Assembly (NCBI GenBank): GCA_035942355.1
Contig: DASZDE010000073.1
Location: 8,773 to 72,772 of the forward strand
Direction: 5' to 3'
Length of the DNA stretch: 64,000 nt
Source: Allosphingosinicella sp.
GTDB taxonomy: Bacteria > Pseudomonadota > Alphaproteobacteria > Sphingomonadales > Sphingomonadaceae
This document shows, one piece after another, positions 38,245 through 41,157 of this stretch. The notes beneath the pieces are model-generated. The model saw nothing but the letters and a program-made list of their open reading frames with translations, made no database searches and was not told the DNA's origin. The first letter of the stretch is position 1. Each line of letters starts with the position of its first letter. The translations under genes and the position numbers were made by a program.

Positions 38245-38254
38245 CCCCGACGGT

Positions 38255-38289
38255 GCACTTTCATCGACCGCTGGACGGCGTTCGTCGAC
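38255..38289 (+). promoter_or_regulatory. Putative LytTR tandem box upstream of the small peptide
   Basis: CTTTCATCGAC (38258) and CGTTCGTCGAC (38279) at a 21-bp period. Confidence 0.5.
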
Positions 38290-38409
38290 GCGCGACAGGC
38301 TTGTCGAAGCGATTCGCACCGCCGTCGATGCAAAGCGGCGACTCACCGACTGCGGGAATAGGGGGAGACTCACCGGGCGACCCCGCCCCGGCTCCAAGGG
38401 AGAAAGATC

Positions 38410-38511
38410 ATGACTGCGGAGATTTTCCGTACCGTGTCCACGTGCGTCGCGGCGATCTTTGTGAGCACCATGCTGCTGACCGCGGCAACCTCGCTCCCGG
38501 GGATCCTCTGA
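38410..38511 (+). CDS. 33-aa hydrophobic small peptide
   Basis: Below the track cut-off. MTAEIFRTVSTCVAAIFVSTMLLTAATSLPGIL; AAGGGAGA RBS; TGATG coupling to the next ORF. Confidence 0.6.
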   Translation: MTAEIFRTVSTCVAAIFVSTMLLTAATSLPGIL

Positions 38512-38684
38512 TGCCGGCCCCGTCGGTCTTCGGCGAGATGATCGGGTCCGCGACGGGTGAGCGGCGGCCGGCGACGGCCAAGCCGTCCCGGACCTACCCG
38601 TATCACGGCCTGTTCGGCGTCGCCCTGCTGCCCGCCGCCACGACCGCGCCCCAGGCGGACCAGCGGCCGCGCAGCCTCGGCTGA
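38511..38684 (+). CDS. 57-aa small protein coupled to the peptide
   Basis: ATG overlaps the upstream TGA; MPAPSVFGEMIG...YPYHGLFGVALLPAA. Confidence 0.45.
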   Translation: MPAPSVFGEMIGSATGERRPATAKPSRTYPYHGLFGVALLPAATTAPQADQRPRSLG

Positions 38685-38699
38685 GGCCGCCGCACCGGC

Positions 38700-39464
38700 T
38701 CAGTCCAGGCGCAAGGCGTCCTTGACGGCCGCGACGTAGCTGGGCCCGACCTGGACCTGCGCCCCGTCGACCAATACGAGCGACAGCGACCGGTTGGCCC
38801 GCTTCACCTCGGCGACCTTGTCCGGCCGCACGAAGGCCGACCGGTGCACGCGCAGCAATGGGCTTCCGGCCAGTTTCTCCTCGAGCGCGGCCATGGTGGT
38901 GCGCAGCAAATGGCTGCGGACATGGGTATGGAGCAGGACGTAATCGCGCGCCGCCTCGATCCAGTCGATCGTGTCGATCGGGACCCGCCGCTGGCCGTCG
39001 CGCTCGGGCACCCAGAAGCCGGCATCGTCCTGCTGGGCGGCGCCGTTGATCTTGAGCGCCGCCATCTCCTCCTCGAGCTTGCCGGCGCGCGCCGCCTGCT
39101 CGCGCATCGTGCGCCGCCGCTTGGCCCGGTCGACCGCCTGGCGCAGCCGGTCGAAGCGCACCGGCTTGAGCAGATAATCGGCGGCGTCGACGTCGAACGC
39201 ATCGGGGGCGTAATGCTCGTGGGCGGTGACGAAGACCAGCTCCGGGCGCGGCTCGATGTCCAGCTCGGCGGCGGTGCGCAGGCCGTTGCGGCCCGGCATT
39301 TGAACGTCGAGGATGACCAGGTCCGGCCGCAGCCGCTCGACCTCGACCAGCGCCTGGTCGCCGTCCTGCGCCTGGCCAACCACCTCGACCCCCTCGATGT
39401 CGGCGAAGAACGTGCGCAGACGATCGAGCGCCAGAGCCTCGTCGTCCACGAGCAGCACGCGCAT
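38700..39464 (-). CDS. LytTR family response regulator
   Basis: REC domain (LLVDDE, LDVQMP, FVTAH, DYLLKP) plus LytTR domain (IDWIEAARDYV, RVHRSAFV). Confidence 0.95.
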   Translation of the reverse strand: MRVLLVDDEALALDRLRTFFADIEGVEVVGQAQDGDQALVEVERLRPDLVILDVQMPGRNGLRTAAELDIEPRPELVFVTAHEHYAPDAFDVDAADYLLKPVRFDRLRQAVDRAKRRRTMREQAARAGKLEEEMAALKINGAAQQDDAGFWVPERDGQRRVPIDTIDWIEAARDYVLLHTHVRSHLLRTTMAALEEKLAGSPLLRVHRSAFVRPDKVAEVKRANRSLSLVLVDGAQVQVGPSYVAAVKDALRLD

Positions 39465-39514
39465 TAGCCTTCCTCCCCAAGCCTTTATCTTTATCCGGGG
39501 ACGGGCGTGCGGAG

Positions 39515-40669
39515 TCAACGTGCGCGTTGGATCTCCGGGATGCAGATCGTCGCGACATAGCCGCGATCGGTGCGCTCGGCAGTGAGGCTTGCCGCGCGCC
39601 CGTAAACCGCCTCCAGCCGGCGCTTGACGTTGACCAGGCCGACCCCGGTGCGGCCGGTCTCGACCTCGGTGCCGGGCGGAACGCTGTCGTTGTGGACGCG
39701 GATGCACAGGTCGCCTTGCTCGACGGTCGCGCGGACCGCGATGTTGACCGGCTCCCGCGACGGGGCGACGCCGTGCTTGATCGCATTTTCGACCAGCGGC
39801 TGGACGAGAAAGCCGGGCACCAGCGCCTCGGCCGCGCCGGGCGCGCAGTCGATCTCGACATTGAGCCGCTCGCCGAACCGCACCGCCTCGATGTCGAGAT
39901 ATTCCTCGATCAGGGCGAGCTCGTCCTCGAGCGGGACCAGCTCGGCCGGGTCGGTGCTCAGCGAGCTGCGCAGGAAGCTCGACAATTTGTCGGTCATCTG
40001 CTCGGCATCCTCGTTGCGGCGGGTGACGATCAGCGCCGAGATCGAATTCAGCGTGTTGAACAGGAAATGGGGGTTGAGCTGGTAGCGAAGCGCCGCCAGC
40101 TGAGCCTGCTGGGCGGCCGAGCGCGCGTCGACCAGCTGCCGCTCCTGGCGCCGCTCGCGCCGGCGCGAGAAGCTCAGCTGGAACAAGGCAAGGTTGACCG
40201 AAAAGACGAGGATATAGTTCAGCGTCGCGCCGTAGCTGCGCTCGATCGTCTGCGGCAGCGAAGCCCAGCTCGATTCGAGATTCTCCGCCACCCAGCCGGT
40301 CCACAAGATGTCGAAAATGCGATTGAACACGGCGGTGAAGATGACCGCCGCGACCAGGATCAGCGCCCGCGCGCCCTGCGGCCAGTCGAGCGTCTTCCTG
40401 AACAGCAGGAAGATCGGCATCGCCAGCACCATCGATACCACGATCGTCGAACTGTCGAGCGCGATGCTGAGCAGGCCGGCGCCGGGGTGACGCTCCATGA
40501 TCACCGGCAGGAACATCAGCAGGGTGAACAGCCACAGCGCGATGGTCAGCACGATCGCATCCAGCCAGCGCGCATCTCTGTCCGCAGAAGGCATGAACGT
40601 GATGGGACCTCGCCTGACCAGCGGCCCTATCTGCCGCAAAGCCGCGAAGCTGTCACTCGCCATCAGCAT
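39515..40669 (-). CDS. LytS-type membrane sensor histidine kinase
   Basis: About four TM segments; LRYQLNPHFLFNTLN, QPLVENAIKHG, TGVGLVNV..RL. Confidence 0.93.
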   Translation of the reverse strand: MLMASDSFAALRQIGPLVRRGPITFMPSADRDARWLDAIVLTIALWLFTLLMFLPVIMERHPGAGLLSIALDSSTIVVSMVLAMPIFLLFRKTLDWPQGARALILVAAVIFTAVFNRIFDILWTGWVAENLESSWASLPQTIERSYGATLNYILVFSVNLALFQLSFSRRRERRQERQLVDARSAAQQAQLAALRYQLNPHFLFNTLNSISALIVTRRNEDAEQMTDKLSSFLRSSLSTDPAELVPLEDELALIEEYLDIEAVRFGERLNVEIDCAPGAAEALVPGFLVQPLVENAIKHGVAPSREPVNIAVRATVEQGDLCIRVHNDSVPPGTEVETGRTGVGLVNVKRRLEAVYGRAASLTAERTDRGYVATICIPEIQRAR

Positions 40670-40733
40670 CCGGTAGGCCCCCGCCGCACCGAGCCAGGAT
40701 CGCGCGTGCACCGGCCGCAGCCTATGGTGGCGA

Positions 40734-40765
40734 GACGAAAGTGCCCGATCATGCGACAAAAGTGT
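40734..40765 (-). promoter_or_regulatory. Putative LytTR tandem box upstream of the kinase
   Basis: ACACTTTTGTC-N10-GCACTTTCGTC on the minus strand, 21-bp period; the second half matches GCACTTTCATC at 38255 at 10 of 11 positions. Confidence 0.55.
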
Positions 40766-41067
40766 TGCGCGCGAAGGGTTTGGCCGGCGTGCGGCCATGC
40801 TCTGCCTCAACTGGACAAGCATCAGCCGCGCCGATCGGCGGGGCATTGCGGAGGTGCGCACGCAATCATCTCGAATTCCTAGATTTGGCGAACGAGCGCT
40901 GGCTCGGCCGCTGCCTGGTGCCCTCCATTGACCGCCTGGTAGCCGCCCGATCCGGCAGCGTCATGATCGGCGCGTCCTAAATGACCGCCGCTGCTGCAAA
41001 TCGGCTCCGGTTACGATCTACATGCATTTTCGAGCGACAAAGCTGTTGGAAGGGCGGGCAGATCGGA

Positions 41068-41119: not shown

Positions 41120-41157
41120 TATGCGGGTGTAACGCGACGGAATGAAGGATTCGGCCC

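Follow-up and report, generated by a model that had tools for sequence, protein, structure and literature searches.

A candidate three-gene module of histidine kinase, LytTR regulator and micropeptide in Sphingomonadaceae

Overall architecture of the locus

We analysed a stretch of 64,000 nucleotides from Allosphingosinicella sp. (contig DASZDE010000073.1, positions 8,773 to 72,772), hereafter called the window. From comparison with related genomes, the locus at 38254-40765 of the window is best explained as a three-gene module present in part of the Sphingomonadaceae, consisting of an intramembrane-type histidine kinase with four transmembrane (TM) helices, a LytTR response regulator and a convergent gene for a 33-residue micropeptide. 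A preliminary description made from the letters of the window had reported repeated promoter boxes and two small open reading frames (ORFs), and all of them are present at the positions listed here.

39515-40669, minus strand: histidine kinase gene; short cytoplasmic N-terminus, four TM helices, then His_kinase (PF06580) and HATPase_c domains
38700-39464, minus strand: response regulator gene; receiver and LytTR DNA-binding domains (Pfam)
38410-38511, plus strand: gene for the 33-residue micropeptide (P0001); conserved ORF with a coding signature and a single predicted helix
38396-38403, plus strand: ribosome-binding site AAGGGAGA; purine-rich, precedes the 33-residue ORF
38511-38684, plus strand: second ORF of 57 residues, hydrophilic (P0002); lineage-specific, with a TGATG overlap with the micropeptide stop
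38254-38330, plus strand: predicted operator array in front of the micropeptide gene; a direct repeat of four TTCGTCG-type boxes, whose cores lie at 38263, 38284, 38303 and 38324
40734-40765, minus strand: predicted operator of the kinase-regulator operon; two boxes with an exact 21 bp period, about 65-95 nt upstream of the inferred kinase start
38357-38362, plus strand: candidate -10 element, AATAGG here and CTA[G/A/T] in relatives; its role is inferred

The regulator gene lies 47 nt downstream of the kinase gene. Its product shows the domain arrangement of a LytTR-type response regulator, with a receiver domain (PF00072, 9.2e-25) and a C-terminal LytTR domain (PF04397, 1.6e-18), both of which exceed the Pfam gathering cut-offs. 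The best NCBIfam match is BtsR, with 143.9 bits against a cut-off of 246 and so below the equivalog level, and the LytR equivalog (104.7 bits, cut-off 375) is not reached either. The kinase begins with four hydrophobic helices joined by very short loops, and its Pfam matches are confined to PF06580 and PF02518; the 5TM LytS-YhcK sensor domain was not found with Pfam, and the kinase has no NCBIfam family match. A sequence search of the PDB returned generic receiver and kinase matches only. In the preliminary description the system was named a LytS/LytTR circuit. The LytTR regulator is confirmed, but the LytS label is rejected because the kinase carries PF06580 and HATPase_c behind four TM helices and lacks the 5TM domain. 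Finally, the kinase likely starts at the ATG at 40669 (MLMASDS) rather than at 40594, since the N-terminal motif [S/R]D..P..LRQ is conserved in the orthologs; this cytoplasmic motif lies upstream of the first TM helix (window positions 40595-40669, minus strand).

The micropeptide is a conserved gene linked to the pair

Judged by its conservation, the 33-residue ORF is a real gene under purifying selection. In 24 loci, of which 21 are distinct, a homologous ORF of 32-38 codons lies convergent to the regulator 3′ end; it begins with ATG in all except G016 (GTG) and is preceded by a purine-rich ribosome-binding site 5-10 nt before the start in 24 of 24. The column entropy by codon position 1, 2 and 3 is 0.85, 0.43 and 1.13, the G+C content of third codon positions (GC3) is 0.86, and the mean nonsynonymous value (pN) is 0.28 versus a synonymous value (pS) of 0.52. 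It is this conservation of start, ribosome-binding site, length and codon signature over the loci that marks the 33-residue ORF as a gene. The exact 33-residue sequence is already called as a protein in public collections, where it is unnamed or labelled 'hypothetical protein'. It has no Pfam or NCBIfam match, and hence none that would place it in the MgrB family.

The AlphaFold2 model of the micropeptide is one continuous helix spanning residues 2-32, with a predicted local distance difference test score (pLDDT) of 85.8. The near-invariant residues R7, T11, A14 and F17 lie within a hydrophobic stretch rich in Ala, Ser and Thr; this TM core is conserved, whereas the final 5-6 residues are variable. 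The micropeptide is very probably a membrane helix. The single conserved arginine that precedes the helix suggests, by the positive-inside rule, a topology with the N-terminus inside.

To follow the linkage between the peptide and the two-component pair, regulator orthologs with 72-84% identity were gathered within the genus, in four further genera of the family and among named public genomes. The named carriers are Sphingosinicella sp. YJ22, Sphingomonas changbaiensis NBRC 104936, Sphingomonas fennica K101 and a Sphingobium metagenome-assembled genome. Within Allosphingosinicella/Sphingosinicella, all 11 genomes that encode the regulator ortholog also have the peptide, and all 13 that lack the ortholog are without it; these genomes are related and are not independent samples, so no formal statistic is attached to the contrast. 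Among 200 genomes covering 112 genera of the family there are five strong matches in four genera, each beside a regulator ortholog, and no peptide match at E <= 1e-4 was found in 398 genomes of other alphaproteobacterial families. The peptide does not accompany regulator homologs of at most 68% identity. When 1.84 billion representative proteins were searched with a profile, 68 clusters (50% identity) were obtained, in all of which the match ends at the protein C-terminus, the longer proteins being over-extended gene calls. The peptide gene is convergent to the regulator in every locus examined, while its other flank varies (an ABM-domain gene in the window; a receiver-domain gene, a glutaminase gene and others elsewhere). 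Even in G016, where an extra gene is inserted between peptide and regulator, the four boxes are kept. Across these genomes the peptide gene is strictly linked to the kinase-regulator pair and co-occurs with it.

This constancy of arrangement is also what an RNA product would predict, in which a convergent transcript, activated by the regulator, would read in antisense into the regulator 3′ end and dampen the operon, the ORF being secondary. The convergent orientation is invariant, the stop codons are only 4-10 nt apart in six loci so that the transcripts must overlap, and no terminator was detected in the gap of the window by a consensus scan of this high-GC DNA. However, the ORF is under clear protein-level constraint, and many loci have strong GC-rich hairpins, a gap of 60-273 nt or, as in G016, an inserted gene, all of which speak against obligatory read-through; thus, an antisense role, though possible in those six loci, is not the conserved feature, and we consider this explanation improbable. 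Rfam gave no credible RNA family in the window. A c-di-GMP-II match (E 0.24) lies inside the ABM-domain gene and was rejected as probably due to chance.

A secreted or processed signal is a further alternative, in which the peptide and the pair would form a three-component system resembling quorum sensing and the kinase would sense the peptide from outside. The C-terminal 5-6 residues do differ between species, and the reference list of PMC4847170 points to frequent pairing of Firmicutes LytTR systems with peptide pheromones. The conserved part of the peptide is nevertheless the hydrophobic TM core, with variability limited to that short tail, which makes secretion unlikely. Moreover, the peptide sequences lack a double-glycine leader, the flanks of the module differ between loci and include no conserved gene for processing or export, and the PF06580-type kinase, with its minimal outside loops, is not a receptor of the AgrC/ComD type. 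The pheromone reading was rejected on this conservation pattern and on the lack of a leader or conserved exporter, and its probability is very low. The preliminary description had proposed an autoregulated pair with a neighbouring hydrophobic micropeptide, membrane-bound or secreted, as its output; the comparisons support the pair and its output but make the secreted part unlikely.

The second ORF has a different distribution. An ORF of 57-67 codons follows the peptide gene in the window and its three closest relatives only (L001, L053, L016 and L009), where its sequences have the motifs S[VI]FG[ED] and GLFG in common and a coding-like GC3 of 0.81-0.96. The other loci have a gap of 4-140 nt to the regulator gene and no such second ORF. 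The second ORF is probably real but a recent addition, and as a core component it was rejected because it is confined to four loci. The operon of two small ORFs described at first therefore holds for the conserved 33-residue gene, whereas the 57-residue ORF is lineage-specific and stands outside the conserved module.

Two kinds of small frame were observed beside the family. Open frames of 52 residues that weakly match the peptide profile (E about 1e-3) recur in several genomes (G015:C6:508396, G019:C59:54877 and G022:C8:18555) and may represent a second, unrelated family of small membrane proteins. In Phenylobacterium kunshanense (L082), a hydrophobic 38-residue ORF is convergent to a regulator homolog with 58% identity; it may be an analogue of the micropeptide, with no similarity to the family that could be detected.

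Paired boxes of the predicted operators at both promoters

All support for regulation is comparative, and it comes from direct repeats in front of both transcription units. On the minus strand, the kinase promoter (40765-40734) has ACACTTTTGTC, 10 nt and then GCACTTTCGTC. The peptide promoter has GCACTTTCATC from 38255 and, 21 bp later, a second box, GGCGTTCGTCG, with its core GTCG at 38284; further GTCGA cores follow at 38303 and 38324. The spacing of the GTCG/ATCG cores at the peptide promoter is 21/19/21 bp, which corresponds to two 21-bp pairs and not to one uniform array. Within the window, the pattern TTYRTCG-N14-TTYRTC (at most one mismatch) has five matches versus 0.45 expected, a number reached in none of 100 shuffles, whereas the single 11-mer box alone is not significant (four matches versus 1.5 expected).

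The conservation of both operators across orthologous loci decides the matter. In an alignment of the ten initial loci, the four-box array stands out in 10 of 10 from upstream DNA that is otherwise unconserved. A 16-nt weight matrix built from the peptide promoters of these ten loci and from the kinase boxes recovers the array in 10 of 11 further distinct loci that were absent from matrix building. In total, 20 of the 21 distinct loci have the array; its spacing is 21/18-20/21, and 73-90 nt separate box 4 from the ATG. The pair at the kinase operon (TTCGTCGC, then GCAnnTTCGTC, exactly 21 bp apart) is kept in 10 of 10 orthologous loci. Conservation of the boxes was a check named beforehand in the preliminary description, and its proposal of LytTR-type boxes with a period of about 21 bp is borne out at both promoters, where the period is exactly 21 bp. 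Known LytTR target sites consist of 9-11-nt repeats with 11-13-nt spacers (PMC4847170), and the predicted sites at both promoters have this paired-repeat geometry. With high probability the boxes are bound by the regulator of this locus.

Nearly all loci have a CTA[G/A/T] element 33-35 nt past the G of box 4. If, as we infer, it serves as the -10 element, the array would lie at about -108 to -43, which is a typical activator position, and the regulator probably activates rather than represses the micropeptide gene. A consensus promoter scan, in this high-GC DNA, found no E. coli-type promoter at the micropeptide gene. A weaker box pair (scores of 12.8 and 5.1) was also observed at 41011-41047 on the minus strand, about 250 nt upstream of the kinase operator; it sits in the 470-nt intergenic region before the gene at 41142.

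Other predicted targets in the genome

When the whole genome is scanned for 21-bp pairs, codon periodicity interferes, as TTC-GTC-G is common in frame, and a coding mask over 87% of the genome removes this effect only in part. Since the raw counts are dominated by periodicity, we relied on the top-ranked intergenic sites together with their conservation. These sites are as follows.

C153:13241-13318 (L048), minus strand: four boxes spaced 21/20/21, the last core about 87 nt before the start; gene for a 617-residue protein with RTX calcium-binding repeats
C185:18404-18704 (L049:2905-3205), minus strand: one strong 21-bp pair; gene for a 53-residue predicted membrane protein (P0081)
C180:7010-8077 (L050): three TTCGTCG boxes spaced 20/21 bp; first of two tandem PspC-domain genes
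C53:10128-10190: four boxes; gene for an 86-residue zinc-ribbon protein
C190:9622-9698: weaker array; sulfotransferase-domain gene

The 53-residue protein has homologs in 14 genomes of the genus. Pairs scoring at least 14 lie 114-171 nt upstream of its gene in six of seven genomes with the system and in none of the seven without it, where the best score is 4.6. Similarly, the PspC-like gene has pairs scoring at least 20 in four genomes with the system and in none without. Box presence at these two genes tracks the presence of the system, which ties the boxes to this kinase-regulator pair. From this co-occurrence, the same regulator appears to drive the genes of the 53-residue membrane protein and the PspC-domain protein, and the RTX-repeat protein gene possibly belongs to the same regulon. 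The geometry of the array at the RTX-repeat gene was seen to equal that of the peptide promoter. The micropeptide had been put forward as the local output of the system, but as the output alone it does not stand, given that box pairs that track the system also precede other genes. As far as the predicted sites tell, the micropeptide is the linked output, yet not the sole one.

Proposed mechanism and its alternatives

The best explanation as a whole is an autoregulated pair with a micropeptide whose most likely target is the kinase, and we give this complete scheme about an even chance. The phosphorylated regulator would bind as dimers at direct TTCGTCG-type boxes with a 21 bp period. One box pair before its own operon would provide autoregulation, and two adjacent pairs abutting the -35 region of the micropeptide promoter would lead to activation. 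The micropeptide would then insert into the inner membrane and act via its conserved small-residue-rich helix, most likely on the cognate kinase, which would give feedback of the MgrB/PhoQ or SaePQ/SaeS kind. The kinase is favoured as the target because the peptide and the pair are inherited together much more closely than the pair and the remaining genes of the regulon, because the kinase is essentially without an extramembrane sensor, and because the conserved small-residue-rich helix suits helix packing. That the cognate kinase is the target has, in our estimate, somewhat less than an even chance. More tentative still is a stricter version, with the peptide as an obligatory third component whose helix would dock into the sensor formed by the four TM helices, where it would set the activity of the kinase or exert feedback on it.

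Several observations weigh against this scheme. Distance-matrix covariation between the peptide and the kinase sensor region gave a partial r of 0.16 (p ~0.06) and nothing specific, and in the same analysis the peptide tracks the kinase catalytic domain better than the sensor region. In Sphingomonas fennica (L035/L059), the sole exception among the distinct loci, the peptide is present and no recognizable box array was found. The relatedness of the genus genomes noted above has to be counted here as well. Distant regulator homologs (53-68% identity) from Sphingomonas quercus, an Acetobacteraceae bacterium, a Muricoccus plasmid and Phenylobacterium keep TTCGTCGCA pairs at other neighbouring genes; the motif is thus older than the link to the micropeptide. 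Finally, the assignment of sites to this regulator rests on co-occurrence, in a genome that encodes at least two other full-length LytTR regulators.

The last two points would also be expected if another transcription factor, for example a paralogous LytTR regulator, owned the boxes and the adjacency were historical. However, all 10 orthologous loci have the same boxes before the operon of the pair itself, and those at unlinked genes occur only in genomes with this pair, which leaves such ownership with a minimal probability. As a separate observation on the distant homologs, TTCGTCGCA pairs with the 21 bp period lie near the kinase start and face away from it in L067, L082, L069, L071 and L065; the facing genes include an isochorismatase-like gene in L067 and a secreted-protein gene in L082.

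The covariation result bears most directly on the choice of target. Since it shows nothing specific for the sensor region, an effector role is almost as likely as action on the kinase. Here, the micropeptide would be induced by the system and would act, with no contact to the kinase, on some other target in the membrane, for example a transporter, a PspC-type envelope-stress component or lipid packing. Many small membrane proteins modulate transporters, and the regulon seems to hold other envelope proteins. On the other hand, the peptide gene is strictly tied to the kinase-regulator pair in position and in occurrence, the other genes of the regulon lie unlinked elsewhere, and the neighbourhood has no conserved third partner gene, as the flanks vary. 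We regard the effector role as a substantial, though minority, possibility beside feedback on the kinase.

Novelty and significance

In the full-text literature on LytTR in Sphingomonas or Alphaproteobacteria we found no description of the module, in agreement with the preliminary remark that none was known in sphingomonads. By its predicted parts, the system belongs to a known general kind, a two-component pair that has a small membrane protein under its regulation. Pairs of a PF06580 kinase and a LytTR regulator abound in Proteobacteria and Bacteroidota; to our knowledge, few of them have a known signal, target or operator. The present locus offers three handles, namely a conserved operator geometry, a small readable regulon and a co-inherited candidate sensor partner. 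It also adds an uncurated family of small membrane proteins, whose members are called hypothetical or skipped by annotation pipelines, and since the system is present in cultured strains it is directly testable. If the micropeptide were an obligatory third component, the module would represent an uncharacterized class of intramembrane-sensing PF06580 kinase/LytTR systems, and the micropeptide would be the first of the MgrB/SaeQ kind both in a LytTR system and among the Alphaproteobacteria. The TTCGTCG operator would, on the same condition, define an envelope-stress regulon.

Comparison with known systems

Like the module, the Agr, Com and Pln systems of Firmicutes combine a LytTR regulator with paired direct repeats, are autoregulated, as predicted here, and have a neighbouring target gene that encodes a small peptide. 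The module differs in having no leader and no processing or export machinery and in its kinase class, and its peptide is conserved like a membrane helix and not like a secreted signal. At the examined loci, neither of the marks of a peptide pheromone, a precursor with a leader and a nearby processing or export gene, was found.

The kinase AlgZ (FimS) of Pseudomonas aeruginosa is presumably also a multi-TM PF06580-type kinase without the 5TM LytS sensor. Its partner AlgR is, as here, a proteobacterial LytTR regulator (PMC4064291). The box core TTCGTC overlaps the AlgR 9-mer CCGTTCGTC (PMC4064291), although the upstream CCG of the latter is not conserved in our loci. In addition, AlgR frequently has single sites that lie far from the promoter, whereas the sites here are strict 21-bp tandem pairs adjoining it, and no micropeptide partner is described for AlgZR. 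The YpdA/YpdB and BtsS/BtsR systems of E. coli likewise have LytTR regulators, each with a direct repeat at one main target promoter (PMC4847170); the YpdB site consists of GGCATTTCAT twice with a period of about 21 bp (PMC4847170). Their kinases carry LytS 5TM and GAF parts, both of which are missing from the present kinase, and the targets of YpdB and BtsR are transporters in contrast to the micropeptide here.

For the proposed feedback, the relevant precedents lie outside the LytTR systems. In Staphylococcus aureus, SaeP and SaeQ act on SaeS by the same feedback logic, and SaeS is an intramembrane-sensing kinase. In MgrB-PhoQ/PhoP of enterobacteria, a small membrane protein induced by the regulator acts back on the sensor kinase (PMC8404706). 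The likeness lies in a small membrane protein gene under predicted two-component control and in an intramembrane-sensing kinase resembling SaeS. The micropeptide has no sequence similarity to MgrB or SaePQ; it is shorter than MgrB (33 versus 47 residues) and has almost no periplasmic part. Moreover, the partners here are a PF06580-type kinase and a LytTR regulator, with the small gene physically tied to the system. Action on the kinase, which is known for MgrB and SaePQ, is by analogy the candidate role of the sphingomonad micropeptide.

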